NCBI GenBank assembly: GCA_964526435.1
Contig: CAZGIC010000002.1
Location: forward strand, 633-64,632
Reading direction: 5' to 3'
DNA from: an uncultured Lachnospiraceae bacterium
GTDB lineage: Bacteria; Bacillota; Clostridia; Lachnospirales; CAG-274
Length of the DNA: 64,000 bases
This document shows positions 15,054 to 56,878 of this stretch, piece by piece; position 1 is the first letter of the stretch; the number at the start of each line of letters is the position of its first letter. The position numbers and the translations under genes are program-made. Under the pieces are notes generated by a model. It was not told the DNA's origin, made no database searches, and was given only the letters and a program-made list of their open reading frames with translations.

Positions 15054-15323
15054 GTCCTGTGCTAGTCGGGGAGGTAGCGGTGCCCTGTAGTCTGCAATCC
15101 GCTTAGCAGAGATTATGTCCGCACTGAGGCTTTAGTTTGTGGGGTCAGCCTGCAGGCTTTTGATGTTGACGATTGAGTCTTGCACAACGGGAACCTGTGA
15201 ACCGTGTCAGATCCGGAAGGAAGCAGCACTAAGCAGTCATTTTCGTGTGTTGCAAGGTAGCTTGGTCTGAGTTGAAACCTGTTGTAACGCCCGGAGGCTA
15301 CTGTCGAAGTGGGATGCACAGGA
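15054..15323 (+). ncRNA. ffs: Signal recognition particle RNA, long Bacillus type (scRNA) with Alu domain
   Basis: GTGCTAGTCGGGGAGGTAGCGGTGCCCTGTA (Alu domain) and CAGATCCGGAAGGAAGCAGCA (domain IV) match the B. subtilis scRNA pattern. 5' TCCTGTGC pairs with 3' GCACAGGA, and a T8 run follows. It is a local GC-rich island. Confidence 0.85.
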
Positions 15324-40156: not shown

Positions 40157-40383
40157 TTTCCACACTCTCCCTAATTTAAACATACATACCTATTATACCA
40201 TAAAAAGTTGAAAATTTGTGTTACGTTTTAATATCAAAGTTCACACAATGATAAAAAGTTCAAATATTAATTAAAATTTAATTTATTTTTAAATAAAAAC
40301 AATATTATATGTATTATAATTCAAATAAAAGATATTGCTATAAGTTTCTGTTTATGTTATTATGGAGGTGAGAAAATGATGAG

Positions 40384-41550
40384 GTGAATAATTTGGAAAA
40401 GTATTTTTTAAATAAGAAAATAGGTATTATAGGCGGAGGTCAGCTTGGGCAAATGATGCTCCTTGAAGCGAAGAAAATGGGCTTTTATGCTGTTGTTCTT
40501 GACCCTTCTGAAAATTGTCCGTGTCATAGTATATGTGATGAACACATTGTTGCATCTTTTGAAGATGAGGCTGCCTTTAAGCTTCTTGCAGAAAAAACTG
40601 ATGTTGTAACTTATGAATTTGAACATATCAATGCAAAGGCTCTTGAAAAACTTGAAAGTATGGGTTATAAAGTTTATCCTTCTGCTTCAAGTCTTGAGGT
40701 CATACAAGATAAACTGACGCAAAAAGAAGCGATGAAAAAGGAAGGACTGCCTGTTCCGGACTTTATGTACATAAATAATACAGAGGATATGGAAAAGGCC
40801 GGTATGGTTTACGGGTATCCTTATATGCTCAAGGCAAGAACCGGAGGATACGATGGAAAAGGCAATGCTGTTGTGAAATCATATGAAGATATTAATTCGG
40901 CATATTCAGAACTGGGATGCGGAAAAATAAAGCTTATGGCTGAAAAGATGATTGATTTTAAAATGGAAACATCAATACTTGCCTGTCGGAGTCTTAACGG
41001 AGATATAGCTGTATATCCGGTAGGCGATAATAAGCATATTGACAGTATACTTCACGAAACAAGCGTTCCTGCAAACATTCCGGAAAAGGCTGCAAAAACA
41101 GCTATGGCAGTTGCATCAAAAGTTATGGAAGTATTTGATGGCATAGGTATGTTCTGTGTTGAAATGTTTGTCACAAAGGATAATGATATTCTTGTAAATG
41201 AAGTTGCTCCCAGACCTCATAATTCAGGACATTATACCATTGAGGGCTGTATAACAAGCCAGTTTGAAAATCACATAAGGGCTATTGTGGGTCTTCCTTT
41301 AGGAGATACAAGTCTTATATGTCCTACAGTTATGATCAATCTTCTTGGAGAAGAAGGATATACAGGTGATACTGTGGTTACAGGACTTGATAAGGCTATG
41401 GCTTTAAAAGGGGTATCCCTTCATATTTACGGAAAGGCACAGACTAAGCCAAAACGTAAAATGGGACATATAACAGTAACAGCTAACAGTGTTTCCAGAG
41501 CAAAGGAAATTGCCGAGGAAGCCTATAAATATATTAAAATTAAAGCCTGA
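40384..41550 (+). CDS. purK: N5-carboxyaminoimidazole ribonucleotide synthase
   Basis: ATP-grasp protein starting IGIIGGGQLGQMM, 388 aa. The start codon is uncertain (GTG at 40384 or TTG at 40393). Confidence 0.85.
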   Translation: MNNLEKYFLNKKIGIIGGGQLGQMMLLEAKKMGFYAVVLDPSENCPCHSICDEHIVASFEDEAAFKLLAEKTDVVTYEFEHINAKALEKLESMGYKVYPSASSLEVIQDKLTQKEAMKKEGLPVPDFMYINNTEDMEKAGMVYGYPYMLKARTGGYDGKGNAVVKSYEDINSAYSELGCGKIKLMAEKMIDFKMETSILACRSLNGDIAVYPVGDNKHIDSILHETSVPANIPEKAAKTAMAVASKVMEVFDGIGMFCVEMFVTKDNDILVNEVAPRPHNSGHYTIEGCITSQFENHIRAIVGLPLGDTSLICPTVMINLLGEEGYTGDTVVTGLDKAMALKGVSLHIYGKAQTKPKRKMGHITVTANSVSRAKEIAEEAYKYIKIKA

Positions 41551-41569
41551 GAAAGGAGATTGATTTGAA

Positions 41570-42079
41570 ATGGCAATAGTTGGAATTATTATGGGCAGTG
41601 ACTCTGATCTGCCTGTTATGTGTGAGGCAGCGAAGGTATTGGATGAATTCGGAGTTGAATATGAACTGACAGTGGTTTCAGCACACAGAACTCCTGACAG
41701 AATGTATGAATATGCAAAGTCAGCTAAAAAAAGAGGCATTAAACTTATTATTGCAGGTGCCGGAGGCGCTGCTCATCTTCCCGGAATGACAGCAGCTATT
41801 ACCACTCTTCCTGTAATAGGGGTGCCGATTAAAACAAAGGCTTTAAGCGGTGTAGATTCATTGTACTCTATTGTTCAGATGCCAGGAGGAATACCTGTTG
41901 CTACAGTTGCAATTAATGGAGGCAAAAATGCCGGACTTCTGGCTGTACAGACTCTTGGTGCCTTTGACGAGGAGCTTTCAAAAAAGGTTGAAGCCTATAA
42001 ATTAAATCTTGAACAAACAGTTATTGAAAAAGCTGAAAAACTTGAACAAATTGGCTATGAAAAATATTTAAATCAATAA
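41570..42079 (+). CDS. purE: N5-carboxyaminoimidazole ribonucleotide mutase
   Basis: Motifs [16 protein letters not shown] and [10 protein letters not shown]. Confidence 0.9.
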
Positions 42080-42201
42080 TACTATATATTTTTCTGTATA
42101 TTTTTAGAACGAAAATAAATAATGTCTATGTTGATTTTTTATCAGATATGAAGTATACTTTATTTGATGGCAAAATATTAAATTATGTAGAAAAGGAGAC
42201 A

Positions 42202-42609
42202 ATGGCTATGAATTATACTAAAACTATAGGTTCGAATATTAGATATGAAAGAAAACTGAGAGGACTCACAATTGATGACTTTGCTAAGGTTATTGGAATG
42301 GCTCCCGGATTTGTAGGTCTTATCGAAAGAGGTCAGAGAGGTACAAGCATTGCTAATATGGTAAGAATAGCTGAATTTTTTGATATTACTCTTGATGAAC
42401 TTATTACAAAGGATTTAGCTGAAGGTAAGGTTTCTACTCCTAAGAGTGTTAATAAGATTGACAAAGACAGAAGAGCTTTAATAAGCATGATAAGCACAAT
42501 GTCTGAAAGTAAAGTGCAGATACTTGCAGCTAATGCTAAAGCTTTAAATAAATACATCCCTACTCCAAATGCTAAAGAAGCTATGCTTGATGAATTTGAT
42601 GGTGAGTAA
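42202..42609 (+). CDS. XRE-family helix-turn-helix transcriptional regulator
   Basis: HTH_3 pattern IRYERKLRGLTIDDFAKVIGMAPGFVGLIERGQR. I prefer the ATG at 42202, 4 nt after AAGGAG (short spacing), to the ATG at 42148. Confidence 0.75.
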   Translation: MAMNYTKTIGSNIRYERKLRGLTIDDFAKVIGMAPGFVGLIERGQRGTSIANMVRIAEFFDITLDELITKDLAEGKVSTPKSVNKIDKDRRALISMISTMSESKVQILAANAKALNKYIPTPNAKEAMLDEFDGE

Positions 42610-42636
42610 ATTTTATTTTTATATATTTAATTGTAA

Positions 42637-42675
42637 AACAATAATGGACTGCGTTTTTAGTGGTCCATTATTGTT
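42637..42675. terminator. Bidirectional terminator
   Basis: AACAATAATGGAC - loop - GTCCATTATTGTT followed by TTT. Confidence 0.6.
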
Positions 42676-42692
42676 TTATTAAAAATATTTAT

Positions 42693-43856
42693 TTAATCAA
42701 GAATACCGCTTTTACTTATTTTACTTACTGCTCTTTTAAGTCCGTCACAATTTTGCACAAGAGCTGCTCTTACATATCCTTCTCCCAAATCACCAAATGA
42801 TGCACCGGGAACTACAAGTACGCCTGCCTTTTCCAAAAGTTCTAAAGAAAATTCATAAGATGATTTAAATTTTGGAGGAATAGGCAGCCATGCAAACATT
42901 GTTGCTTTGGTTTCAGGTACCTTCCAGCCTATTGAATTAAGTCCCTTTATGAGGGTGTCTCGTCTTTTTTTGTATTCATTTCTTACATCTGCAACATATG
43001 TCTGATCTCCTGTAAGGGCAGATATTGCAGCTTTCTGTATGCCTAAGCACATTCCATAGTCTATCTGAGAACGAAAAGCTCTGAAACGCTTTAAAATTTC
43101 ATGGTTTCCTATGGCAAAGGACAACCTTAATCCTGTAAGATTATATGATTTTGAAAGAGAATTGAATTCAATACCTACATCAATAGCTCCGTCAATTTCA
43201 AGAAATGAAAGTCCGGGATCTTCATCGTAAACAAGCTCGGAATAAGCATTGTCATGAATAACTATAATATCGTATTTCTTAGCAAAGGCTACAAGCTTCT
43301 CATAAAATTCTCTTGGTGCTGTTGCTGTAGTAGGATTATTTGGATAAGAAACAACCATCATTTTAGCTTTTTCGGCTATTTCTTCGGGAATAGCATCAAG
43401 GTCTATTATATAGTTATTTTCTTTTAAAAGAGGCATATAATAAAGCTGAACATCAGCCATAGTAGGACCAAAAGCAAATATCTGATAACAAGGATCAGGT
43501 ACAAGTACAATATCACCCGGATTGCACAGAGGAAAAGCAATGTGTGCAATGCCTTCCTGTGAACCGTTTACAGCGACAATATTTTTATGTTCAAGATTTA
43601 CACCATATCTGTTCTTATACCAGTATACAACTGCATCAAGAAGTTCTTTGCTTTCTGTAATACCATATTTATAATTATCTGCATTTAAAAAAGCTTCACT
43701 TACTGCCTTTATAACATAGTCAGCAGGAGGAATGTCGGGAGTACCTATTGAAAGGTTTATGACCTCCTCGCCTTTTGAGAGCATTTCTTTGCTTTTAGTA
43801 TCAAGTTCTACAAGTATATTTTCTTTTATATTACCAAACTTCTTTGAAAATTCCAT
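42693..43856 (-). CDS. Class I/II PLP-dependent aminotransferase
   Basis: 387 aa with YPNNPT and the PLP-lysine motif NSLSKSYNLTGLR. Confidence 0.8.
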   Translation of the reverse strand: MEFSKKFGNIKENILVELDTKSKEMLSKGEEVINLSIGTPDIPPADYVIKAVSEAFLNADNYKYGITESKELLDAVVYWYKNRYGVNLEHKNIVAVNGSQEGIAHIAFPLCNPGDIVLVPDPCYQIFAFGPTMADVQLYYMPLLKENNYIIDLDAIPEEIAEKAKMMVVSYPNNPTTATAPREFYEKLVAFAKKYDIIVIHDNAYSELVYDEDPGLSFLEIDGAIDVGIEFNSLSKSYNLTGLRLSFAIGNHEILKRFRAFRSQIDYGMCLGIQKAAISALTGDQTYVADVRNEYKKRRDTLIKGLNSIGWKVPETKATMFAWLPIPPKFKSSYEFSLELLEKAGVLVVPGASFGDLGEGYVRAALVQNCDGLKRAVSKISKSGILD

Positions 43857-43877
43857 AAATGTATCCCCTTTATTATT

Positions 43878-44900
43878 TTATCTTTCTCCGAGTTTAAGGC
43901 TTGGATAAGCGTTAAGTGACATATCTGCCACATTTCCTTTTAAAAATTCATAATAGCCTGCGGCACCGATCATGGCAGCATTATCAGTACAAAGCACAGG
44001 AGCGGGCACACAAAGTTCTATATTTTCTTTTTCACAGGCTTTTGCCATTTCTTCTCTAAGATGAGAGTTTGCTGAAACTCCTCCTGCAAGGGCAAGCTTA
44101 TTAAGATTAAGTTCCTTACAGGCTCTTATTGCTTTTTCAACAAGAACATCTACAACAGCCTGTTGAAAACTTGCGGCTATATCTTCATTTTTAAATTCTT
44201 CACCCTTCATTTTTGCTTTGTTTATATAGTTAAGGACTGCAGATTTCAGACCGCTGAAACTGAAATCATAGGTGTCATTTTCAAGTACAACTCTTGGAAA
44301 ATTAACTGCATCAGGATTTCCTTCTTTTGAAAGTCTGTCTATTTGGGGACCGCCCGGATATGTAAGCCCAAGAACTCTTGCTACTTTGTCATAGGCTTCA
44401 CCGGCTGCATCATCTCTTGTATGGCCCAGTATTTCAAAGCTGTTGTAGTCCTTAATGTGTACAAGATGAGTATGTCCGCCGCTTATTATTTCACATACAA
44501 AAGGGGGTTCCCAGTCCTTATTCTGAATATAGTTTGCAGCAATATGCCCTTCAATATGATGAACGGGAATTAAAGGCTTGTTAAGAGCAAATGCCAGAGC
44601 CTTTGCCTCAGAAAGTCCCACTAAAAGGGCACCTACAAGTCCCGGACCGTATGTAACGGCAATAGCATCAATATCTTTTTTGTCAACTCCCGCCTCATCA
44701 AGAGCGGCATCTATGACCCAGTCAATAGCTTCTATATGCTGTCTTGATGCTATTTCAGGTACAACACCGCCGTAAAGCTTATGTGTTGCAATTTGTGATG
44801 ATATTACATTTGAAAGTACTTTTCTGCCGTTTACGACAACAGCAGCAGATGTTTCATCACAGGAGCTTTCTATTGCAAGTATTGTTATATCCTTATTCAT
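43878..44900 (-). CDS. tsaD: tRNA N6-adenosine threonylcarbamoyltransferase
   Basis: Motifs [22 protein letters not shown] and GGVSAN. Confidence 0.9.
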
Positions 44901-45252
44901 TTTTTCTCACTCCAAATGTTAAACTGTATACTACAAAATAAATTCCCAGCACTGAAAATAAAACAGCTAAAAGCAGATTTAAATTTCCGCATTTAACAAA
45001 GTTATATTCAATATCCAGAGCCGTGTTGTAATATTTTCCGATAAAATTATATATACCAAAGTCTTTTAAAAATTGAATGATATAATTTTTTTCAATTGTA
45101 AGAGCCATTATAAGGCTTGAAATACAGCCGAAAATAAGAAAAGCAAGGGCAAAGGGACTGAGTTTTTTGTCAATGTCAATATTTTCGATTTTATTCATGA
45201 CAAGTTTTTCAAAATTTTCAGGAGGCAAACATTTATTGTTCATAGCCCTCAC
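44893..45252 (-). CDS. Putative anti-sigma factor / membrane protein
   Basis: 119 aa with two TM segments. It overlaps the sigma gene by 20 nt and tsaD by 8 nt. Confidence 0.5.
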
Positions 45253-45781
45253 CTCTTTCCAAATCTATTTTAAGCTTTTTTCTTGCTCTGTAAATTCTGT
45301 TTTTGACTTTAGTTAAGGGAATATTCAAAATTTCTGCTATTTCGGCATATTTCATACCATAACTGTAATACATTACAAGAGGCAGTTTGTATTTATCTGA
45401 TAAACTGTCAATTGCAGAATTCAGTTTTTCTCTGTCCTCTTTTTTAAGGTATTCCTGTTCAGGCGAAACTGTCGTATGATGAAGATTATATTCGCTGTCT
45501 TCAATAGGAACGGTTTTTATTTTATTTTTACGCATATAATCTATTGTATGGTTTACAGCAATTCTTATTACCCATGTTGAAAAGCTGTAATCGGGATTAT
45601 ATCGTCCAAGATTTTTATATATTTTAACAAATATTTCCTGTGAAAGGTCAAGGGTATCTTCATAATTCCCTATTGCATTGTATACCTTTGAGAACACAAG
45701 ATTTTTGTATCTTGACACGATTTCAGAAAAAGCCTCTTTGTTGCCCTTAAGACATTCTTTGACAATTTCATAATCTGTCAT
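45233..45781 (-). CDS. ECF-type RNA polymerase sigma-70 factor
   Basis: 182 aa. Region 2 is DLSQEIFVKIYKNL..FSTWVIRIAVNHTIDYMRK. Region 4 is YAEIAEILNIPLTKVKNRIYRARKKL. Confidence 0.85.
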   Translation of the reverse strand: MTDYEIVKECLKGNKEAFSEIVSRYKNLVFSKVYNAIGNYEDTLDLSQEIFVKIYKNLGRYNPDYSFSTWVIRIAVNHTIDYMRKNKIKTVPIEDSEYNLHHTTVSPEQEYLKKEDREKLNSAIDSLSDKYKLPLVMYYSYGMKYAEIAEILNIPLTKVKNRIYRARKKLKIDLERGEGYEQ

Positions 45782-45807
45782 GGCAACACCTCTTTCAAAT
45801 GAAAAAC

Positions 45808-46725
45808 TTATTCATCATCAAACATAAGGGAAACTGTTTTCCTGTCTTTGCCTAAATAAGTATTTGCAAAAATGTCTCTTGCATTATTTATATACATTTC
45901 AGGAAATGGCATAGCAGGACTGAAATGAGTAAGCCACAGCTCCCTTACATTTCCTGCTTTTGCAAGTTTTGCAGCTTCAGAAAAAAGCATATGTTTGTAT
46001 TCTTTTGCCTTGGAAAGTTTTTCTTCTTCCCCATACATTCCTTCGCATATGAACAAATCAGAACCTTCTATAAACTCAGGTAATTTGTCTACAGGTCTTG
46101 TATCTGTACAGTAGGACACTGTGATCCCTCTTCTGCTGTCGCCCAAAACCATATCAGAGGTATATATTTTACCTTCATATTCAGTCTGAGGCTGTTTCTG
46201 GAGAACAGACCATATCTTTTTAGGTACATTAAGTTCTATTGCTTTTTCAACATTAAAACGCCCTGCACGTTTAACATCGACTCTGTAAGCATAGCATGTG
46301 ATTTTATGATTGACCTTAAGACTTTTTATATTAAACACTCCGGCATTTAATTCTTCATCAGGATCCAGTTCAACTATTTCTACAGGGAACGGAAGCTCCG
46401 GACATATAGCCTTTAATCCGTCATATATTTTAGAAAGTCCGTGGGGTCCGGCAAGAATAAGAGGTTCTGTTCTGAAAGAATTACCAATTGTTAAAAGAAG
46501 TCCGGGAAGTCCTGAAATGTGATCTGCATGATAATGTGTAAAACATACAATATCAATATTTTTAAATCCCCAGCCAAGCTGTTTCATTGTAACCTGTGTA
46601 CCCTCACCACAGTCAATAACCATCATTCTGCCCTCAAGCCTTAACATAAGGCTTGTCAGATGCCTTTCAGGCAGCGGCATCATTCCTCCCGTACCGAGCA
46701 ATGCAACATCAAGCATATTAATCAC
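45808..46725 (-). CDS. rnz: Ribonuclease Z
   Basis: 305 aa with an MBL fold. It carries LGTGGMMP, HYHADHISGLPGLL and a C-terminal THFS motif. Confidence 0.85.
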   Translation of the reverse strand: MINMLDVALLGTGGMMPLPERHLTSLMLRLEGRMMVIDCGEGTQVTMKQLGWGFKNIDIVCFTHYHADHISGLPGLLLTIGNSFRTEPLILAGPHGLSKIYDGLKAICPELPFPVEIVELDPDEELNAGVFNIKSLKVNHKITCYAYRVDVKRAGRFNVEKAIELNVPKKIWSVLQKQPQTEYEGKIYTSDMVLGDSRRGITVSYCTDTRPVDKLPEFIEGSDLFICEGMYGEEEKLSKAKEYKHMLFSEAAKLAKAGNVRELWLTHFSPAMPFPEMYINNARDIFANTYLGKDRKTVSLMFDDE

Positions 46726-46770
46726 CCTTCCACAAATAAGTGTCCTTTAACTTTATTCTGCATAAAATAA

Positions 46771-46791
46771 GGTGTGAGATCGACTCACACC
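46771..46791 (-). terminator. Probable terminator of yajC
   Basis: GGTGTGAG-loop-CTCACACC. The minus strand continues TTATTTTAT. Confidence 0.45.
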
Positions 46792-46820
46792 TGAAATTCA
46801 TACTTATCCTGATTTTGGAA

Positions 46821-47234
46821 TTAATTGCTTTCAGAACTTACATTAGGTGCCTTGTTACCGATAATTTCACTCTTCTTAACAGGAATTCTAACACCTCTGT
46901 TAGTACCAAATTCAACAGTAATAACCTGGTCATTTATTTCAGCAACTTTACCATAAAATCCGGAAGATGTAACTACATCATCGCCAACCTTAATAGATGC
47001 CTGCATTGCCTTTAACTCCTTGTCCCTCTTTCTTGAAGGTCTTATAGCAAGGAAATAAAAAATAGCAACAAGAGCTACAACGTAAATAATCAAACCAATT
47101 GTACCAAAACCTCCGCTTGACTGAGCTGCATCTGCTGCTTGTGTTGCTGCCTGAGTTGCTGCCTCTGATACAGTGTCACCTGCACTTTCCATAGTAACAG
47201 AAGGCCCGTCCAATAAAGACAATAATAAGTTCAT
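46821..47234 (-). CDS. yajC: Preprotein translocase subunit YajC, with an extended N-terminus
   Basis: Motifs IFYFLAIRPSRKRDKE and VGDDVVTSSGFYGKVAEI. Confidence 0.8.
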   Translation of the reverse strand: MNLLLSLLDGPSVTMESAGDTVSEAATQAATQAADAAQSSGGFGTIGLIIYVVALVAIFYFLAIRPSRKRDKELKAMQASIKVGDDVVTSSGFYGKVAEINDQVITVEFGTNRGVRIPVKKSEIIGNKAPNVSSESN

Positions 47235-47401
47235 TTCTTAATCTCTCCTATACATATATATTTATTTTATTTTACCAAATATAAAGAATATAGTCAAGGT
47301 ATTTAAGTTTAAAAAAATATTGAAAGTTACTGATAATGTCCTTTTGGTAACACTCTTAATGTCTTTTACATATATTACAACAGCAGTATGGAGGGCGAAA
47401 T

Positions 47402-48646
47402 ATGGGTTGCTATATTATTGAAGGAGGCAGCAGACTAAGCGGTGAGGTACGGATAAGCGGAGCAAAAAATGCTGTATTGCCAATACTTGCGGCAGCTGCG
47501 GCAAGAAAAGAAAGTACAATTAAAAATGTACCATTTCTATCAGATGTTTCAAATACACTGCAGATTTTAGAAAAGCTTGGTATGGATGTAAAAACAGAGA
47601 GCAACACAGTTACTATATTTAATAATATAAACAATACTGAGCCTGACAAAGATCTCAGCTGTAAAATGAGATCATCTGTATTATTTATGGGAGCTTTACT
47701 TGGAAAATACGGTGAAGTAACAATATACCAGCCGGGAGGCTGTCAGCTTGGATCAAGACCTATAGATGTTCATTTGTGGGCAATGGAACAGTTAGGAGCT
47801 GAAATAAAGCAAATCAATGACAAAATAATATGTAAGGGGAAGTTAAAAGGAGCTGAAATTAATTTACCCATAATATCGGTAGGTGCAACAGAGAATATAA
47901 TACTTGCCGCTATAAATGCAAAAGGAACAACAATTATAAATAATTCAGCAATGGAGCCTGAAATTGAAGATCTTATAAAATATCTTAATGAAAGCGGAGG
48001 AAATATAAGGAGGAAAAATAACACAATAGTGATAGAAGAAAGCCATGACAATAATTACTGCGAACACAGTATTATGCCTGATAGAATTGAAACAGGGACA
48101 TATATTGGAATGGCGGCGGCAACTGGAGGGGAGTTATTTATAAAAAATGTAAATCCTGATCATATTAAATTTATAATATCTTTATTTGAAAAAATCGGAT
48201 GTATAATAAAAACAGATTTCAACACAATATATATAGATGCCCCTTCTGAATTATATGCTGTTCCGGAAATTACAACACGACCTTACCCTTATTTTCCAAC
48301 AGATATGCAGCCTCAGTTTATGGCAGTTCTGGCAAAATCTAAAGGAAAATGTATTATAAATGAAACGTTGTTTTCAGCCAGAAATAAGCATATTCCCGAG
48401 CTTATAAAAATGGGAGCGGATATTGAGGAAATAACAGATTCTCAATTTAAAGTAAACGGCACAGATCGTCTTGAGGGTGCAGAACTTTATGCAAAAGATC
48501 TGAGGGGCGGAGCAGCTCTTGTAACAGCAGCTTTAAGTGCAGAGGGGAAAAGTGTAATATATGGAACTGAGCATATAATAAGAGGATATGAATCTTTATG
48601 TGCAAAGCTTACAGCAGCAGGTGGAAAAATAAAATTAATAAAATAA
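47402..48646 (+). CDS. murA: UDP-N-acetylglucosamine 1-carboxyvinyltransferase
   Basis: 414 aa with GAKNAVLPILAA and the active-site Cys in GGCQLGSRPID. Confidence 0.9.
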   Translation: MGCYIIEGGSRLSGEVRISGAKNAVLPILAAAAARKESTIKNVPFLSDVSNTLQILEKLGMDVKTESNTVTIFNNINNTEPDKDLSCKMRSSVLFMGALLGKYGEVTIYQPGGCQLGSRPIDVHLWAMEQLGAEIKQINDKIICKGKLKGAEINLPIISVGATENIILAAINAKGTTIINNSAMEPEIEDLIKYLNESGGNIRRKNNTIVIEESHDNNYCEHSIMPDRIETGTYIGMAAATGGELFIKNVNPDHIKFIISLFEKIGCIIKTDFNTIYIDAPSELYAVPEITTRPYPYFPTDMQPQFMAVLAKSKGKCIINETLFSARNKHIPELIKMGADIEEITDSQFKVNGTDRLEGAELYAKDLRGGAALVTAALSAEGKSVIYGTEHIIRGYESLCAKLTAAGGKIKLIK

Positions 48647-48886
48647 GTAAAAAACTTAATAAAATTAATTGCCTAGTGATTTGCTTGGTGTTAGCAATAG
48701 CTAACGACTTTAAATAATAATGATTATTATTTATTTAGGGTTTTTGTATTGACATAATATTAACATATGTGTTATTATAATGCTGTCAGAAATATAAATA
48801 TTCATAAGCACTGTTAATTAAATTTACAGAGTTTCTGACAGCGTTATTATTTACAACTTTTTTTATACGATTTGGAGGATTAAAAA

Positions 48887-50941
48887 ATGAATCAAGAATG
48901 GAATGGCTTTGTTAAAGGTGTCTGGCAAAAAGAAATTAATGTACGAGATTTTATTCAGAAAAATTATACACCTTATGACGGCGATGATTCCTTCCTTGCC
49001 GGTCCTACCAAGGCAACAGAAGAACTTTGGTCACAGGTAATGGATCTTTCAAAGAAGGAAATAGAGGCCGGCGGTGTCCTTGATATGGATACAAAAATTA
49101 TTTCAACTATTACATCTCATGATGCAGGATATTTAGATAAGTCAAAGGAAAAAATTGTAGGTTTCCAGACAGACAAGCCTTTTAAACGTTCATTACAGCC
49201 TTACGGTGGTATCAGAATGGCTGTTAAAGCATGTAAAGATAATGGTTATGAAGTTGATCCTGAAATTGTTGAGTTTTTTACAACTCACAGAAAAACACAT
49301 AATGCAGGTGTTTTTGATGCATATACAGATGAAATGAGAGCCTGCCGTTCAAGCCACATAATTACAGGACTTCCCGATGCTTATGGAAGAGGAAGAATTA
49401 TCGGCGACTATAGAAGAATTGCACTTTATGGTGTAGATAGACTTATTGAAGATAAAATCAATCAGAAGAAAACAACAAAGACAATAATGTTTTCTGAAGT
49501 TATAAGAGACAGAGAAGAGCTTTCAGAGCAGATAAGAGCTTTAGAGGATTTAAAGAAGCTTGGTGAGATTTACGGTTATGATATTTCAAGACCTGCAAAC
49601 AATGTTCAGGAAGCTATCCAGTGGCTGTATTTCGGATACCTTGCTGCAGTTAAGGAGCAGAACGGTGCCGCTATGTCATTAGGCAGAACATCAACATTTA
49701 TTGATATTTATGCTGAAAGAGATTTAAAGAACGGCACATTTACAGAAGAAGAAATACAGGAATTTGTTGACCACTTCATTATGAAGTTAAGACTTGTTAA
49801 GTTTGCAAGAACACCGGAATACAACGCATTATTCTCAGGAGACCCTACATGGGTAACAGAGTCAATAGGCGGTGTAGGTATTGACGGCAGACATATGGTT
49901 ACAAAGATGAGCTTCAGATACCTTCATACTTTACAGAATTTAGGTACAGCTCCTGAACCTAACTTGACAGTACTCTGGTCTACAAGACTTCCAATGAATT
50001 TTAAGAGATTTTGTGCAAAGACTTCAATTGAATCTTCATCAATACAGTATGAAAATGATGACCTTATGAGAGTTACACACGGTGATGACTATGCTATTGC
50101 CTGCTGTGTATCTTCAATGAGAGTAGGTAAGGAAATGCAGTTCTTCGGAGCAAGAGCAAACCTTGCAAAGTGCCTTCTCTATGCAATAAACGGTGGTGTT
50201 GATGAAATTACAAAGAAGCAGGTAGGTCCTAAATACAGACCAATTACATCTGAATATCTTGATTATGACGAAGTACTTGACAGATACAAGGATATGATGA
50301 AATGGCTTGCAGGAGTATATGTAAATGCTCTTAACATTATTCACTATATGCACGACAAGTATTGCTATGAAAAGCTTCAGATGGCTTTACATGACAGAGA
50401 GGTGACTCGTTGGTTTGCAACAGGTATTGCAGGTCTTTCAGTTGTTGCCGACTCACTTTCAGCTATTAAATATGCCAAAGTTAAGACAATAAGAGATGAG
50501 AACGGTATTGTTGTGGATTATGAAGTAGAGGGTGATTTCCCTAAGTACGGTAATGATGATGACAGAGTAGACTCAATTGCAGCCACACTTGTACATGAAT
50601 TTATGCAGTATGTAAAGAGTAATCACACATACAGACATGGTATTCCTACAACATCAATACTTACAATAACTTCTAATGTAGTTTACGGTAAGAATACAGG
50701 TTCAACACCTGACGGAAGAAAGGCAGGAGAGCCATTTGCTCCGGGTGCTAATCCAATGCACAGAAGAGATTCACATGGTGCAGTAGCTTCTCTTTCATCT
50801 GTATCTAAACTTCCTTTCAGAGATGCACAGGATGGTATATCAAATACATTCTCAATTATACCAAATGCTCTCGGAAAAGATGCAACTGTATTTGCAGGAG
50901 ATCTTGAAGTTGATTTAGATCTTAATTCAGAGGATAAGTAA
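48887..50941 (+). CDS. pflB: Pyruvate formate-lyase catalytic core, lacking the C-terminal glycyl-radical domain
   Basis: 684 aa. The catalytic Cys pair lies in [23 protein letters not shown]. The ORF ends ..[36 protein letters not shown], where canonical ~750-760-aa PflB runs on into the radical domain. Confidence 0.9.
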
Positions 50942-50963
50942 TTGATCTTAAAAGGATGATAAA

Positions 50964-51188
50964 ATGGAAGATAAAAGAATTGATGATTTAGTTTCATTAA
51001 TTGATAACTTTATGTCAAATGACGGTGGACATATGAATGTTACCGTCAATGAAAACGGCGAAGTTAAAACAGACGAAGAATACATCGATAAGGATGTTGT
51101 AACGCTGGGCTGTCTTGACTGTGCTGACAATATGGCTTGTTCAGTACCTACTCTTTTTGAAGGTATGGACAGAGATGAAAATAAATAA
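50964..51188 (+). CDS. 74-aa glycine-loop-less paralogue of the N-terminal part of the glycyl-radical domain
   Basis: IDDLVSLIDNFMSNDGGHMNVTVNENGE parallels [28 protein letters not shown] of the next ORF. It then diverges into an acidic stretch and GCLDCADNMACS. AAGGA lies 7 nt upstream of the ATG. Confidence 0.5.
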   Translation: MEDKRIDDLVSLIDNFMSNDGGHMNVTVNENGEVKTDEEYIDKDVVTLGCLDCADNMACSVPTLFEGMDRDENK

Positions 51189-51214
51189 CATTAAAAATAT
51201 AAGGAGGATTTTAT

Positions 51215-51454
51215 ATGGCTAACGAGCAGCAGATTGATAATTTAGTTAATATTCTTGATGGCTATGCAGAAAAAGGTGGTCATCATTTAAATGTAAATGT
51301 ATTTACAAAGGAAACTTTGCTTGATGCACAGGCTCATCCTGAAAAATATCCACAGCTTACAGTAAGAGTTTCAGGATATGCTGTAAACTTTAATAAACTT
51401 ACAAAGGAACAGCAGGACGAGGTTATTTCAAGAACTTTCCACGATAATATTTAA
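51215..51454 (+). CDS. Free-standing glycyl-radical domain protein (GrcA/YfiD-like), equivalent to the C-terminal ~70 aa of PflB
   Basis: 79 aa with GGHHLNVNV and [34 protein letters not shown] (glycyl-radical signature RVSGYAV). AAGGAGG lies 7 nt upstream of the ATG. Confidence 0.85.
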
Positions 51455-51462
51455 ATTTTTTT

Positions 51463-51491
51463 AAAAGGCGGTTTACTAACCGCCTTTTTTG
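51463..51491 (+). terminator. Rho-independent terminator between the radical-domain ORF and pflA
   Basis: AAAAGGCGG-TTTACTAA-CCGCCTTTTTT. Confidence 0.7.
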
Positions 51492-51538
51492 GTTTATACT
51501 AGTAAGAAAAGGTTATTAATAAAACAGGAGATGACAAT

Positions 51539-52282
51539 ATGAAAGGTCACATACATTCCCTTGAAAGTTTTGGAAGTGTGGACGGGCCTGGTATACGTTT
51601 TGTTGTATTTTTTAAGGGTTGTCCAATGAGGTGCAAATACTGTCACAATCCCGATACATGGGAGCCCGGAGGCGGTACTGAAATGACAGTTGATGAAATA
51701 ATCGATGGTTTTAACAGAAACAGGGCTTTTTATAAAAACGGAGGAATAACAGCTACAGGGGGCGAACCCCTTATGCAGATCGATTTTGTAACAGAGCTTT
51801 TTAAAAGGTGTAAGGAGGAAAATATACACACATGTCTTGATACTTCAGGCATTACATTTACTCCTGATAATACAGTAAAGTTTGATGGGCTTATTAAATA
51901 CACAGATCTTGTAATGCTTGACATAAAACATATTGACCCTGTGGAACACATTAAACTTACGGAACAGAAGAATGACAATATTATTGAATTTGCAAGGTAC
52001 CTTGACAAAAATAACATACCTATGTGGATACGTCATGTAGTTGTACCGGGAATAACAGATGATACAAATTATCTTTTCAGGCTTGGTGAATTTATAGGTA
52101 CATTAAAGAACGCAAAAGCTCTTGATGTACTTCCCTACCACACAATGGGCGTTAAAAAGTACGAAGCATTAGGTATGGAATATCCTCTTAAGGGTGTTGA
52201 GGCAATGGATAAGAATAAGGCAGTAGAATGTAAAAAGGTAATATTAAACGGTGTAAGAAAGGCAAGACAGGAAAGAAAATAA
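51539..52282 (+). CDS. pflA: Pyruvate formate-lyase activating enzyme (radical SAM)
   Basis: Motifs GSVDGPGIRFVVFFKGCPMRCKYCHNPD and GGEPL. Confidence 0.9.
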   Translation: MKGHIHSLESFGSVDGPGIRFVVFFKGCPMRCKYCHNPDTWEPGGGTEMTVDEIIDGFNRNRAFYKNGGITATGGEPLMQIDFVTELFKRCKEENIHTCLDTSGITFTPDNTVKFDGLIKYTDLVMLDIKHIDPVEHIKLTEQKNDNIIEFARYLDKNNIPMWIRHVVVPGITDDTNYLFRLGEFIGTLKNAKALDVLPYHTMGVKKYEALGMEYPLKGVEAMDKNKAVECKKVILNGVRKARQERK

Positions 52283-52284
52283 AA

Positions 52285-52989
52285 ATGGAAAACTTTATTA
52301 TAAACTACTTTGAGAAACTGAATATTGCAATTGACATAAAAAAGGCAGAGCAGTTTGCTGTCTATAAGAATATGCTGGCTGAATGGAACAAGGTAATGAA
52401 TCTTACAGGAATAACAGAGGACAGAGAAGTAATTATCAAACACTTTGCAGACAGTGTTATGCCCCTTACCTTAGTTGATTTTAAAGATAAAAGTGTAATT
52501 GATGTAGGTACAGGTGCCGGTTTTCCGGGACTTCCATTGAAAATTGCTGAACCGTCAATTAAACTTACTCTTTTGGACTCTCTTTTAAAAAGACTTAACT
52601 TCCTTGAAAATGTCTGTCAAAATATAGGTGTAGATGCCAAGTTTGTACACGGAAGAGCAGAGGAACTGGGAAATGATATAAATTATAGGGAGCAGTATGA
52701 CATTGCTGTATCAAGAGCTGTAGCTCCTTTAAACATTCTTATGGAATATGATATGCCTTATGTTAAAACAGGGGGAGTTATGATAGCTCTTAAGGGTCCT
52801 GCTGCTTATGATGAAATAGAGCAGGCAAAAAATGCAGTAAAGGAACTTGGGGGAGAGATTGAAAGAACAGAGGAAATTATACTGCCTGAAACAGACCTTA
52901 AACATACAATAGTAATAATAAAAAAAATAAGCTCTACCCCTGAAAAATATCCGAGAAGAGCTAAAAAAATCGAGAGAAGTCCCTTGTAA
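52285..52989 (+). CDS. rsmG: 16S rRNA (guanine527-N7)-methyltransferase
   Basis: 234 aa with WNKVMNLTGI and DVGTGAGFPGLPLKI. It starts 2 nt after the pflA stop. Confidence 0.9.
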   Translation: MENFIINYFEKLNIAIDIKKAEQFAVYKNMLAEWNKVMNLTGITEDREVIIKHFADSVMPLTLVDFKDKSVIDVGTGAGFPGLPLKIAEPSIKLTLLDSLLKRLNFLENVCQNIGVDAKFVHGRAEELGNDINYREQYDIAVSRAVAPLNILMEYDMPYVKTGGVMIALKGPAAYDEIEQAKNAVKELGGEIERTEEIILPETDLKHTIVIIKKISSTPEKYPRRAKKIERSPL

Positions 52990-53054
52990 AAAATATGTTT
53001 TTGTCAGCTGATTTTGCTGTATACTGCATTTGAATCAATTTGTAATTAGAATTA

Positions 53055-53089
53055 TAGAGAGGTACAGACAAATGATCTGTACCTCTCTA
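53055..53089. terminator. Bidirectional terminator
   Basis: TAGAGAGGTACAGA-CAAATGA-TCTGTACCTCTCTA followed by TTTT. Confidence 0.65.
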
Positions 53090-53091
53090 TT

Positions 53092-54081
53092 TTATTGCTT
53101 AATTTCAGTTGAATCTCTTTCAATAACGCTGTAACCCATTTTTATTTCACGGCAGCCCTCTTCTGTACCTTTTATCATATTCATTAACAGACGAGCAGCT
53201 TCCATACCGCTTGATTTGTAATAAAAATGAAGAGAAGTAAGGTTAGGTTCCATTACTGTGCCTATTATATTATCCCCAATACCTGCAATCATTACATCAT
53301 CAGGTATTTTTCTTCCGGAATGTTTAATATATTTTGCGGCACCTGCGGCAATATTGTCAGTAGCACATACAATGCCTTCAATACCAATGCCACGGCTGAA
53401 AAGCTCTTTGCAGGCTTCATATCCTGCTTCAAGTGAAAATTCACATTGTATAATATATTTATCGTCATATTTTACGCCATTTTCAGCAAGGGCGGAAATA
53501 TAACCTTTTTTTCTTGAAAACCCTGCAGCCTTGTCTTTATCTGTAACTCCTATGTAGGCAATTTTTTTCTTTTTTCTAAGCAATACATTTGTAAGTGCTT
53601 TTGTGCCATTGTAATCGTCATTGTATACGCAGGAACAGCCATCAAGCCTTTGAGCAAGTATAACAAGGGGAATATTAAGCTCATTTATTAATTTTTTGTG
53701 TTTGTTTGTGAATATTGTTCCTATTAGTATAATGCCGTCTACAAAATTATCTTTAAATGTATTTATATATTTAAGTTCTTCTTTTTCGTCATTGGCTGTG
53801 TTTGCAAGTATAAGCTGAAAATTTTCTGCTGCAACAATGCTGCTTATTCCACTTATCATTTTTCCTATTGCATCGGAGTTGAGCCTTGGTATTATTACAC
53901 CTATAACATTTGTTTTCTTGGTACGGAGAGTTTGTGCCTGTGTAGAGGGTACATATCCTGTTTCTTCAATAACCTTCTTTATTATTTTCTTTTTTTCGGC
54001 ACTTACATAGCCGTTGTTGAGATACCTTGACACAGTGGCTCTTGAAACTCCTGCCATTTTTGCAATTTCATTTATTGTCAT
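53092..54081 (-). CDS. LacI-family transcriptional regulator
   Basis: HTH MTINEIAKMAGVSRATVSRYLNN plus a periplasmic-binding-protein-like sugar domain. I prefer the ATG at 54081 (GAAGGAA RBS) to the ATG at 54129. Confidence 0.85.
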   Translation of the reverse strand: MTINEIAKMAGVSRATVSRYLNNGYVSAEKKKIIKKVIEETGYVPSTQAQTLRTKKTNVIGVIIPRLNSDAIGKMISGISSIVAAENFQLILANTANDEKEELKYINTFKDNFVDGIILIGTIFTNKHKKLINELNIPLVILAQRLDGCSCVYNDDYNGTKALTNVLLRKKKKIAYIGVTDKDKAAGFSRKKGYISALAENGVKYDDKYIIQCEFSLEAGYEACKELFSRGIGIEGIVCATDNIAAGAAKYIKHSGRKIPDDVMIAGIGDNIIGTVMEPNLTSLHFYYKSSGMEAARLLMNMIKGTEEGCREIKMGYSVIERDSTEIKQ

Positions 54082-54170
54082 ATTGTATTCCTTCTTGTAT
54101 GTACCAATTGCATAAGGCGGATAAGTCAAAAATTAACCTATCCGTCAACTGAAATTCATATAATTAAGGT

Positions 54171-54644
54171 TTATTCGTTATCTTTGCTGTTAGAATTAAG
54201 TTCCTCTTTAACTTCATTTACTGCATCTTTAACTGTGTTTTTAACATTTGATGCTGCGTCTTTAGTGTCTTCTATTGTGGTTTTTACAGATTCTTTAATA
54301 TCATCGGCGGCTTCTTTTACTTCGTCAATAATATCTTCGGAAGAATCAATAATTACCTCGTCAACAAAGTCTGCATTTTTAGCTTTTGCTTTGTATTCCT
54401 GCATTTTTATTTTGCCTTTGCTGTATACATCTTCTCCTATTTCCTTTGCTTTGTCTGCGTATTTTTTTACAACAGGTTTTGCATCTTCAACTATTTCGCA
54501 TACTCGTTCCCTTACAGTTTCAATTACATCTCCGGCATCTATACTCTTTGTATCTTTGATTGTTTCCATAAGTTTAACAGCTTCGTCTACAGTTATTTTG
54601 CCGTCATTTACCATTTTAAGTATAGTCATTCTTTCCTTTTTCAT
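54171..54644 (-). CDS. Small Lys/Glu/Asp-rich protein with a SHOCT/LiaX-like N-terminal helix
   Basis: ILKMVNDGKITVDEAVKLMETI is followed by repetitive charged helices. The start is uncertain (54644, 54629 or 54665). Confidence 0.6.
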   Translation of the reverse strand: MKKERMTILKMVNDGKITVDEAVKLMETIKDTKSIDAGDVIETVRERVCEIVEDAKPVVKKYADKAKEIGEDVYSKGKIKMQEYKAKAKNADFVDEVIIDSSEDIIDEVKEAADDIKESVKTTIEDTKDAASNVKNTVKDAVNEVKEELNSNSKDNE

Positions 54645-54696
54645 TGTAAAAAACCTCTCTTTCATTTAGTTTTAGAATTTACAGTTTGCATATTTT

Positions 54697-55422
54697 TTAT
54701 TCAAAGCTTGTTAAATCCCTTTCTATTGTTTTTCTGACTGTTTCGGGAAGCTGGGCAATTTCTTCTTTTGAAAGTGATGTAACATCAATTGGCGGATGAA
54801 TATATAAATTAACTGTTACAGGTTTTATTCTGTAGTTATTTGCCTCCATAATATTTCTTGTTCCGTCAATTGTTAAAGGGACAATGGGGCATTTGCTTTT
54901 TGTTGCAAGTTTAAAGCTTCCGCCTTTGAATTCTCCCAGCTTTCCTGTTTTGCTTCTTGTACCTTCAGGGAAGATAACCATATTGATCCCGTTTTTAAGC
55001 TGTTTTATGCCATCAATAATTATCTGAGCTGACTGTTTAATGTCACTGCGATCCATAAAAAGGCAGTGTATTCTTTTCATCCATTGATTTATAAAAGGAA
55101 GTTTTTCAAGCTCCACTTTTGCTACAAATGCTTTTGGAACGGGAAGATATGCCAAAAGCAAAAGTATATCGAAATTACTCTGATGATTTGAAACAAAGAG
55201 AATGCTCGTATCCTTTGGCAGATTTTCTATGCCATAAACATTTACCTTAGCTCCCGAATCTTTCATTCTGTCCATTGCCCAGTCTGATACTCTTTTTGTG
55301 ACAAAGTCCTCATATTCTTCATTTTTCCCTTCTTCAAGAAACTTATCTGCCTTTTTAAGTTTACTTTTGTTAATGACAAGGGAGCCTATTAACTTAACAT
55401 ACCATTTTATTGTTCTAAACAT
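54697..55422 (-). CDS. plsC: 1-acyl-sn-glycerol-3-phosphate acyltransferase
   Basis: Motifs VSNHQSNFD (HX4D) and FPEGTRS. Confidence 0.85.
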   Translation of the reverse strand: MFRTIKWYVKLIGSLVINKSKLKKADKFLEEGKNEEYEDFVTKRVSDWAMDRMKDSGAKVNVYGIENLPKDTSILFVSNHQSNFDILLLLAYLPVPKAFVAKVELEKLPFINQWMKRIHCLFMDRSDIKQSAQIIIDGIKQLKNGINMVIFPEGTRSKTGKLGEFKGGSFKLATKSKCPIVPLTIDGTRNIMEANNYRIKPVTVNLYIHPPIDVTSLSKEEIAQLPETVRKTIERDLTSFE

Positions 55423-55549
55423 ATTTAAACTCCTTCAAAAAACACTTTTTTAATTCACCAAAATATGTTAATATATACTTAGTTATTAATTTATGATTTA
55501 ATTATACAATAGATTTATTAAAATTTAAAGTTTTTTTGGAGATAAATTT

Positions 55550-56878
55550 ATGAAAGAGAGAGAAATTGCCCTTTTTGTGCTTATGGACATATTTGAAGAG
55601 GGTGCTTATAATAATATAATATTAAGAAAAACACTGAATAAGCACAGTGAACTTACTTCTGTTCAGAGGGCTTTTGTTACAGAGCTTGTAAACGGAACAC
55701 TGAGGAATCTTATAAATATTGACTATGTTATAAACAGTTTTTCTAAAACTAAAACGGATAAAATGAAGCCTTTTATTTTAAATAATTTAAGGGTTGCTGT
55801 TTATCAGATACTTTATATGGATAAAATTCCTGTATCGGCTGCATGTAATGAGGCTGTTATGCTTGCAAAAAAGAGAAGTTTTTCTTCTCTTTCAGGTTTT
55901 GTAAACGGAGTTCTCAGAAATATTGCAAGGAACAGGGATAATATTGAATATCCAAAAGATAAAACAAAAGCTCTTGCACTTAAATACTCTTATCCGGAAT
56001 GGCTTATAAAATACTGGCTTAAGGAAATGTCCTTTGAGGAGGCAGAAAAAGTTTGTGCTTCATTTGCACAGCCCCCAAGGCTAAGTGTGTGTGTAAATAC
56101 AACAAAGGTAAGTAAAAATGAATTAAAGAATAAATTTTCAGATGAGGGCATTGCTGTAGACAGTGATACACTTCTTGACAACAGCCTGTATATTTACAGA
56201 ACAAGCAATATAGCTGAAAGCATGTGCTATAAAGAAGGGCTTTTTCATATAATGGATGAGAGCTCTATGCTTGCTGTTAAAATTTTGGCACCTTTAAAAA
56301 ATTCCCTTGTGGTTGATGTGTGTTCAGCTCCGGGAGGAAAGAGCTTTGCTATAGCTGAATATATGGACGATTCTGGACAGGTTCGTTCAAGGGACGTTTA
56401 TGAACATAAAATCAAGCTTATTGAGGAAGGAGCAGAACGTCTGGGACTTAAATCAATAAAAACCGAGCTTAAAGATGCCTCAGAAGCTGATATGGAACTG
56501 AAAGCAGATTATGTACTTGTGGATGCTCCATGTTCAGGTTTGGGACTTGTAAGAAAAAAGCCTGATATTAAATATAACAAAGTTTATGAGGATATTGAAG
56601 AGCTTTCAGCTTTACAGAGGAAAATCCTTGCAGCATCATCTGTTATGGTGAAGGAAGGAGGAATACTTGTGTATTCCACATGTACAATATCACATAAGGA
56701 AAACATTGAAAATGTAAAGTGGTTTTGCAGAGAATACGGATTTACTCCGGAGGATATAAGAAAGTATCTTCCTGAAAATATGAAATGTGATACAGCAGAA
56801 AAGGGTTATATACAGCTTTTGCCTTATGAATATGGAACAGACGGATTTTTTATAGCAAGGATGAGAAAAAATGGATAA
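55550..56878 (+). CDS. rsmB: 16S rRNA (cytosine967-C5)-methyltransferase
   Basis: NusB-like N-terminus, VDVCSAPGGKS and TCT motifs. Confidence 0.9.
   Translation: MKEREIALFVLMDIFEEGAYNNIILRKTLNKHSELTSVQRAFVTELVNGTLRNLINIDYVINSFSKTKTDKMKPFILNNLRVAVYQILYMDKIPVSAACNEAVMLAKKRSFSSLSGFVNGVLRNIARNRDNIEYPKDKTKALALKYSYPEWLIKYWLKEMSFEEAEKVCASFAQPPRLSVCVNTTKVSKNELKNKFSDEGIAVDSDTLLDNSLYIYRTSNIAESMCYKEGLFHIMDESSMLAVKILAPLKNSLVVDVCSAPGGKSFAIAEYMDDSGQVRSRDVYEHKIKLIEEGAERLGLKSIKTELKDASEADMELKADYVLVDAPCSGLGLVRKKPDIKYNKVYEDIEELSALQRKILAASSVMVKEGGILVYSTCTISHKENIENVKWFCREYGFTPEDIRKYLPENMKCDTAEKGYIQLLPYEYGTDGFFIARMRKNG

Follow-up and report, generated by a model that had tools for sequence, protein, structure and literature searches.

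The pfl locus and its complementary halves

The stretch of DNA analyzed here (hereafter the window) comprises 64,000 nucleotides (nt) of an uncultured Lachnospiraceae bacterium (contig CAZGIC010000002.1, positions 633 to 64,632 of the forward strand) and contains an operon for pyruvate formate-lyase (PFL) in which the parts of the enzyme are distributed over separate genes, all of them on the forward strand. The first gene (48887..50941) encodes a catalytic core of 684 amino acids (aa) that is equivalent to residues ~10-677 of Escherichia coli PflB followed by an acidic C-terminal tail of 20 aa (50879..50938); this tail is conserved and stands in place of PflB 677-759, and the chain is devoid of the glycyl-radical loop. 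The catalytic Cys pair, Cys406-Cys407 (C418/C419 in E. coli), was located by translation in the motif IACCVSSM (codons at 50102..50107) and occupies invariant columns in the core alignment. The core gene ends in a TAA codon and is followed, after a gap of 273 nt, by an open reading frame (ORF) for a protein of 79 aa, ORF79 (51215..51454), which belongs to the family named GrcA3 and is equivalent to PflB 679-759. Its Shine-Dalgarno (SD) sequence AAGGAGG (51201..51207) lies 7 nt ahead of the ATG, and the codon of Gly54 (51374..51376), within RVSGY, marks the predicted radical site on the basis of the alignment to PflB. The gap accommodates ORF74 (50964..51188), a small conserved two-module protein related to no Pfam family, with AAGGA 7 nt ahead of its ATG. 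Between ORF79 and pflA there is an intrinsic-terminator-like hairpin (51463..51488; 11-bp stem with 5 G-C pairs) followed by a T run; pflA itself (51539..52282) encodes a PFL-activating radical S-adenosylmethionine enzyme of 247 aa (TIGR02493, 304.6 bits with a cut-off of 231.75; PF04055 and PF13353). An initial annotation of this DNA had reported the 684-aa frame with its Cys pair and its stop at 50941, the 79-aa frame with its ribosome-binding site and 7-nt spacer, and the terminator and pflA behind it, all of which were confirmed.

The core scored 734.7 bits (E 1.4e-220) against PF02901 and 1123.7 bits against TIGR01255, above the cut-off of 994.2. The barrel score, the adjacent Cys pair and the PflA gene alongside are those of a member of the PFL family; the RVSGY loop, in contrast, is not on the same chain as the core and is carried by ORF79. 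Models of PFL are shared out between the two proteins: on the 744 positions of TIGR01255 the core covers 2-666 and ORF79 covers 663-743, and of the 106 positions of the Pfam Gly_radical domain (PF01228) the core (residues 617-665) holds 1-49 and ORF79 holds 50-106. The comparison with E. coli PflB and GrcA that had been suggested in the initial annotation gave the same picture, as residues 4-669 of the core align to PflB 10-681 and residues 6-77 of ORF79 to PflB 681-757 (1h16). Because of these complementary alignments, the break is placed at PflB ~677-680. Missing from the core and found on ORF79 are the 680-692 helix, strand beta10 (GGxHLNVNV), the Gly loop with Gly54 (= G734) and the C-terminal helix; Cys406/407 stay on the core. 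The earlier description of the core as lacking its glycyl-radical domain is therefore accurate with regard to the Gly loop but not to the whole domain, since the cut lies inside Pfam Gly_radical and the first half of it remains on the core.

ORF79 matched the GrcA3 model NF038360 over positions 2-78 of 78 with 170.8 bits (cut-off 158) and remained below the cut-offs of GrcA (TIGR04365, 96.9 vs 170) and GrcA2 (NF008341, 101.9 vs 145); its residues 19-78 align to residues 67-126 of GrcA (6owr) with an E value of 1e-22. Residues R51, V52, S53, G54, and Y55 are invariant in the GrcA3 alignment. Judged from the sequences, the PFL of the window is composed of a large core and a separate 79-residue protein bearing the predicted radical glycine.

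Conservation of the split, ORF74 and the Cys/PTLFEG motif

The occurrence of GrcA3 was surveyed with ORF79 across 185,579 species, each represented by one genome, where 600 candidate stretches were examined and at least 579 species-level relatives were confirmed, in Bacillota. Loci were compared for the best 80 of these at least 579 relatives, which belong to Lachnospiraceae (Blautia, Sellimonas, Dorea, Lachnoclostridium, Hungatella, Lachnotalea), Oscillospiraceae, Acutalibacteraceae, Ruminococcus, Christensenellaceae, and Erysipelotrichaceae (Beduini, Holdemania). The same layout had been proposed to be sought in related genomes, and it was found: a truncated core, 74-92% identical to that of the window, lies directly upstream of GrcA3 in every locus whose contig extends to the upstream gene (78/78), and the version of the operon with ORF74 was present in 26 of 79 loci. 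Of the 80 species loci, 71 have a pflA match next to the operon, just downstream of GrcA3 in most of those that are long enough and upstream in one (L028), and no pflA match was found within the DNA examined in the other 9. The distance between grcA3 and pflA differs even between strains of the same species (84 vs 343 nt). Across these Bacillota families the GrcA3 relatives are 82-96% identical and are conserved more than the core.

The 120 closest homologues of the core (87-100% identity; Lachnospiraceae, Hungatella, Lachnoclostridium, and others) are all truncated and end just past ALGK[DEN], with a tail that terminates in (D/E)LDL, a motif also present in the species loci. The Cys pair and most of the barrel residues are invariant in the core alignment, which rules out a decaying pseudogene and indicates that the core is under strong purifying selection.

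Stand-alone radical modules related to ORF79 (51215-51451) also appear in 1586 phage records, mostly of T4-like enterobacterial phages (60-80% identity). A few unannotated "Bacteriophage sp." contigs from human faeces reach 76-84% identity to ORF79 and may be either bacterial fragments or phage-borne GrcA3.

Two types of split operon were distinguished among 79 loci, i.e., those outside the window's own species cluster plus the window itself. In type A (53 loci, gap of 9-126 nt) the core tail runs on into a Cys-containing motif, e.g., ..GDIEVDLDCSNGACSSPTLFEGLDxE or ..FELEPDCACCEPN, and 51-52 of the 53 core tails show this Cys/PTLFEG motif. In type B (26 loci including the window, gap of 213-356 nt) the tail halts after the acidic stretch and a gene of the ORF74 family, which carries the motif, occupies the gap in all 26, across several families. 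The motif is kept in one form or other in 78 of the 79 loci. The sole exception is L041 (5887-6001; metagenome-assembled genome of a Lachnospiraceae bacterium, JAZNXI010000078.1), in which the core tail ..DDDVFFAGDALNVDGMKLD is devoid of the motif and the gap of 95 nt holds no ORF74-like gene; in L042 a variant of the motif, CDNGACAQLSLFDALD, was observed.

Fifty-four homologues of ORF74 were collected (46-93% identity, 66-88 aa), none of them with a Pfam domain or a name, and an exhaustive profile search retrieved 224 clusters (50% identity level, E<=1e-3), nearly all of the matches listed having 60-90 aa. The protein consists of two conserved modules, and the linker between them varies in length. 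Module 1 (residues 5-28, RIDDLVSLIDNFMSNDGGHMNVTV; 50976..51047), with the consensus IDDLVxxIDxFMSxxGGHMNVTV, shares homology with the helix and strand at the N-terminus of GrcA3 (PflB ~681-709). This relationship was evidenced by comparison of the ORF74 and GrcA3 alignments with hhalign (probability 96.8%, E 2.1e-10, first 36 columns only), by a match of ORF74 to positions 2-30 of NF038360 (E 3e-4) and by 54% identity between the two proteins over 33 aa in locus L043. Module 2 (residues 50-69, CLDCADNMACSVPTLFEGMD; 51111..51170), with the consensus ..DCxxxNMACxVPTLFEGMD, contains the Cys/PTLFEG motif; L64 is invariant in this module and C53, A58, C59, V61, P62, T63, F65, E66, G67, and D69 are nearly so. 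A search of the PDB sequences with ORF74 gave no match at E<=10 and the tails of type A likewise gave nothing useful. The AlphaFold2 (AF2) model of ORF74 alone is of low confidence (mean predicted local distance difference test, pLDDT, 54.6) and displays a helix (4-18) and short strands, one of them at 26-28, with only the N-terminal helix and strand defined and the C-terminal half including module 2 disordered, which would agree with a peptide that folds on a partner.

ORF74 might be considered a non-functional remnant of a partial duplication of grcA3 within an otherwise genuine split PFL, as its N-terminus is homologous to that of GrcA3, it has neither a Pfam family nor a confident AF2 model, and the two thirds of the split operons that are of type A do without it. 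This explanation is improbable. Both modules are conserved while the linker varies, the 224 clusters are consistent in length among the matches listed, and the gene is present in every type-B locus; moreover, its second module is precisely what the core tails of type A carry. No meaningful repeats between ORF74 and ORF79 were found at the DNA level, which rules out a recent duplication and indicates that the duplication is ancient and has been maintained. ORF74 had initially been taken for a bystander, a view that does not hold in light of its 54 homologues, its two conserved modules and its occurrence throughout type B. On this comparative evidence, it is a conserved third component of the split PFL that was not recognized before.

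Alternative explanations, known systems and genomic context

Based on the anatomy and conservation of the locus, the operon probably encodes a naturally split PFL, in which the core would contribute the barrel and Cys406/Cys407 and GrcA3 the missing C-terminal 80 residues as a separate subunit. Several points weigh against this interpretation. YfiD binds an artificially truncated E. coli PFL (tPFL) poorly (PMC8683613) and tight assembly in trans is not a given, although GrcA3, unlike YfiD, is predicted to bring along the extra 680-692 helix. The check for a full-length pflB spans the 64-kb window only, in which no second PFL was found, and the NCBI family name ("rad_fix", autonomous cofactor) reflects the view of GrcA3 as a spare part. 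Finally, the AF2 model of the core reached a mean pLDDT of only 36 from a shallow alignment of 36 sequences (all >=86% identical); a Foldseek search with this low-confidence model returned E. coli PFL only, by way of the sequence term, from a PDB copy that does not include the entries 38la and 38lb.

One of the closest known systems is that of E. coli PflB and GrcA (YfiD), with phage T4 Y06I as a further case. It shares with GrcA3 a small stand-alone protein with an RVSGYAV loop that is activated by PflA and offers its radical in trans to the Cys pair of PFL, which for GrcA3 is a prediction. ORF79 has indeed the C-terminal RVSGYAV loop and helix typical of GrcA. The differences lie in the partner and in the N-terminus. 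In E. coli PflB is full length and GrcA acts as a repair part after oxygen cleavage at G734, whereas the core described here never has the radical domain: in the window, as in each of the 78 species loci whose contig reaches it, the adjacent PFL is truncated. GrcA possesses a long disordered N-terminal half (~60 aa) that recognizes the cleaved PFL and it overlaps the retained PflB 696-733; GrcA3, in contrast, has 79 aa and no disordered extension, starts at PflB ~679 with the 680-692 helix and is already at PflB 681 with its residue 6.

These differences bear on the possibility that GrcA3 is a mere spare part of the YfiD kind for a full-length PFL encoded elsewhere, the adjacent core being a decaying or non-catalytic relic. 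The NCBIfam name "autonomous glycyl radical cofactor", the restricted view of the genome and the fact that stand-alone radical modules are common as accessories, as in the phage records mentioned above, would be in line with it. Still, it has to be regarded as quite unlikely, since a relic is hardly compatible with 87-100% identity over 120 clusters with an invariant Cys pair and mostly invariant barrel, with an end point and a conserved tail shared by all 78 species loci that contain the core, or with a score above the TIGR01255 equivalog cut-off; furthermore, GrcA3 begins exactly where the core ends, and a YfiD-like spare part overlaps the retained portion of its partner.

That the split is only apparent, with a single full-length chain produced by recoding (stop read-through, frameshift or bypass) or by RNA or protein splicing over the 273-nt gap, can be given very little credit. 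Core and ORF79 are in the same frame in the window (48887 and 51215 are both 2 mod 3), but across species their relative frame is random (18/19/16 in type A, 7/8/11 in type B) and the gap spans 9-356 nt; the core stop codon is TAA in 62 of 79 loci, as in the window, whose gap contains many in-frame stop codons. Of 81 loci, 80 have an SD-like motif ahead of the GrcA3 ATG, which, together with the random frame, leads to the conclusion that core and ORF79 are separate polypeptides. Neither an intron nor a riboswitch was detected in the gap, where no Rfam family reached the gathering threshold and sub-threshold chance matches lay over the terminator only. With respect to a split intein, the 20-aa tail is too short, and GrcA3 opens directly with PFL-homologous sequence behind its own SD.

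An artefact of sequencing or assembly (a frameshift or chimera in one assembly) is practically negligible, as the exact ORF79 protein was found on 23 contigs, the 10 of these that were inspected (ENA, NCBI, Logan; independent, same species) all carry the 684-aa core, an ORF of 74-81 aa and ORF79, then pflA where the contig goes on, and the identical architecture recurs in 78 other species-level genomes. This settles the concern about frame or assembly errors expressed in the initial annotation. Misassembly does affect some database homologues of the core: P0001, P0003, P0031, and P0051 (740-821 aa) owe their extra length to internal tandem duplications of 50-130 residues and look like metagenome misassemblies, and yet they finish in the truncated tail. 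Taken together, the two-piece PFL proposed at the outset gains support from pieces that abut on every PFL model, a conserved split, selection on the core, an SD of its own for ORF79 and the random relative frame. The best reading of the data would be an obligate two-piece, and functionally three-piece, PFL.

A similar division has been engineered. In the tPFL(1-695)+YfiD system (Andorfer et al., 2021; PMC8683613) a core without beta10, Gly loop and C-terminal helix is complemented in trans, as is predicted for the natural split PFL. That system is artificial, shows weak binding and poor activation, was cut ~18 residues downstream of the natural split, and has no acidic tail, Cys/PTLFEG motif or ORF74. 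With regard to annotation, ORF79 is a member of NF038360, and NCBI uses the name GrcA3 in Blautia, Sellimonas, Oliverpabstia, Allofournierella, and others; this label suggests a spare part, and no statement was found there on an always-truncated partner PFL or on ORF74.

Glycyl radical enzymes (GREs) of several subunits are also known, such as 4-hydroxyphenylacetate decarboxylase with its small subunit and benzylsuccinate synthase with its beta and gamma subunits, in which small Cys-containing accessory subunits are encoded alongside a large one, as in the split PFL. These small subunits regulate radical formation or stability and bind [4Fe-4S] clusters via at least four Cys, and the radical stays on the large subunit. 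ORF74 does not conform to this type of Fe-S subunit: it has two nearly invariant Cys (C53 and C59), no Pfam or PDB match and no detectable homology to them, its homology being to the N-terminus of the PFL radical domain instead.

The best PDB matches of the core (48887-50938) are the chains 38la_A and 38lb_A (1149 and 1186 bits), both termed "Formate acetyltransferase" and of the truncated type. The 38la chain ends in ..SLGKE, which is the natural split point, and 38lb runs on as ALGKSGNVMFGECD.. in the manner of a tailed core with a different Cys-containing tail. Neither chain is found in a PDB copy running to 2026-04-08, so both must be recent entries; evidently, someone is working on such truncated cores. 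No GrcA3-like or ORF74-like chain was present in the PDB sequence file and no paper on 38la/38lb was found in the literature searched.

The pfl operon is flanked (37310-48646 and 52285-56878) by genes for FtsK, a PurK-like protein, an aminotransferase, TsaD, a metallo-beta-lactamase (MBL)-fold hydrolase, a MurA-like protein, RsmG, a LacI-type regulator, an acyltransferase, and RsmB. These housekeeping neighbors indicate that it is part of the chromosomal core and not of a mobile element. Strains of the same species diverge just past the operon, downstream of rsmG, with a ParE toxin/antitoxin pair in L001 (7858-8329) and a DUF559 gene in L002-L004 (8210-8634). In two Lachnospiraceae loci (L055, 7864-9669; L056, 9869-11698) a second, full-length GRE of the PFL2/dehydratase type is encoded a few kb downstream of the split operon; this enzyme shares ~25-33% identity with the core and bears a radical domain of its own. 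Upstream of the core gene of the window, a consensus scan pointed to a TG-extended promoter-like site (TTGACA-18-TATTAT, 11/12 matches; 48749..48778, forward strand), which is a pattern match only, such sites being no commoner in the region than in shuffled sequence. The sole Rfam family above threshold in the window is the bacterial large signal recognition particle RNA (RF01854, 179.9 bits; 15057-15321, forward strand), and no tRNA genes were found in the 64 kb.

Proposed mechanism and significance

In PFL the radical is made on the Gly loop by PflA, and the loop must exit the barrel to meet the activase. The GrcA/YfiD protein of E. coli can be activated and can pass its radical to C419 in trans. 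Starting from the observed gene anatomy, complementarity and conservation, we infer a similar course of assembly and radical transfer for the split PFL. PflA would take a hydrogen from Gly54 while GrcA3 is free or loosely bound; the helix and strand of this subunit would then dock at the usual place of PflB 680-709 and complete the ten-stranded barrel, and the Gly loop would insert beside the Cys loop, so that the radical could pass to Cys407 for pyruvate cleavage. GrcA3 would be the sole radical carrier for this core, and its 680-692 helix, which is absent from YfiD, may supply the affinity that the tPFL:YfiD pair lacks. Upon oxygen damage, only the 9-kDa subunit would have to be replaced. 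Precedents for function in trans exist, as the E. coli tPFL(1-695)+YfiD pair, once activated, matches wild-type activity in vitro in spite of weak binding (PMC8683613), and GrcA rescues PflB-G734A in vivo (PMC12338860).

The role of ORF74 can be addressed more tentatively. Its module 1 shares the docking helix and strand of GrcA3 but has no glycine, and a flexible linker connects it to the Cys/PTLFEG peptide. Speculatively, ORF74 would most likely serve as a placeholder or regulator that sits in or next to the GrcA3 site and brings the Cys peptide into position. As a lead, A58-C59-x-V61..G67 of ORF74 resembles the active-site loop of the core, A405-C406-C407-V408..G414. It is conceivable, albeit with limited confidence, that the split PFL is a switchable enzyme of three components, in which ORF74 (or the Cys/PTLFEG tail of type A) would act as a glycine-less decoy of the radical domain, plugging or guarding the empty core and holding a mimic of the Cys loop beside the docking site; such a decoy could give way to activated GrcA3, bring in PflA or, on exposure to oxygen, quench the glycyl radical.

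Whether this architecture has already been described was left open in the initial annotation, and the answer is twofold. The genes are already annotated and ORF79 bears the name GrcA3 (NF038360), but in the full-text literature searched there was no paper on "GrcA3" and no description of a natural split PFL; the obligate-split reading and the ORF74/Cys-motif component were not found there either. A GRE review of June 2026 mentions spare parts of the YfiD type only (PMC13450708). As far as can be told, the locus of the window is an ordinary member of a very widespread and seemingly undescribed variant of the PFL/GrcA system.

Provided that much of Clostridia and Erysipelotrichia depends on a radical domain made as a separate, obligatory subunit, nature would already have built the system that was engineered as tPFL+YfiD, and the split PFL could lend itself to studies of how the buried Gly loop is offered to the activase and returns to its docking place. 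For the cell, damage by oxygen would cost a chain of 9 kDa rather than an enzyme of 85 kDa, and the stoichiometry of the subunits or the ORF74/Cys-motif component could serve to adjust activity. Annotation pipelines currently label the core as a complete "formate C-acetyltransferase" and GrcA3 as a spare part; in this way metabolic models and GRE censuses of microbiomes would miss the dependency between them. Should ORF74 prove to be a decoy, it would represent an undescribed mode of glycyl radical enzyme control in an enzyme that ranks among the most abundant of gut Bacillota.

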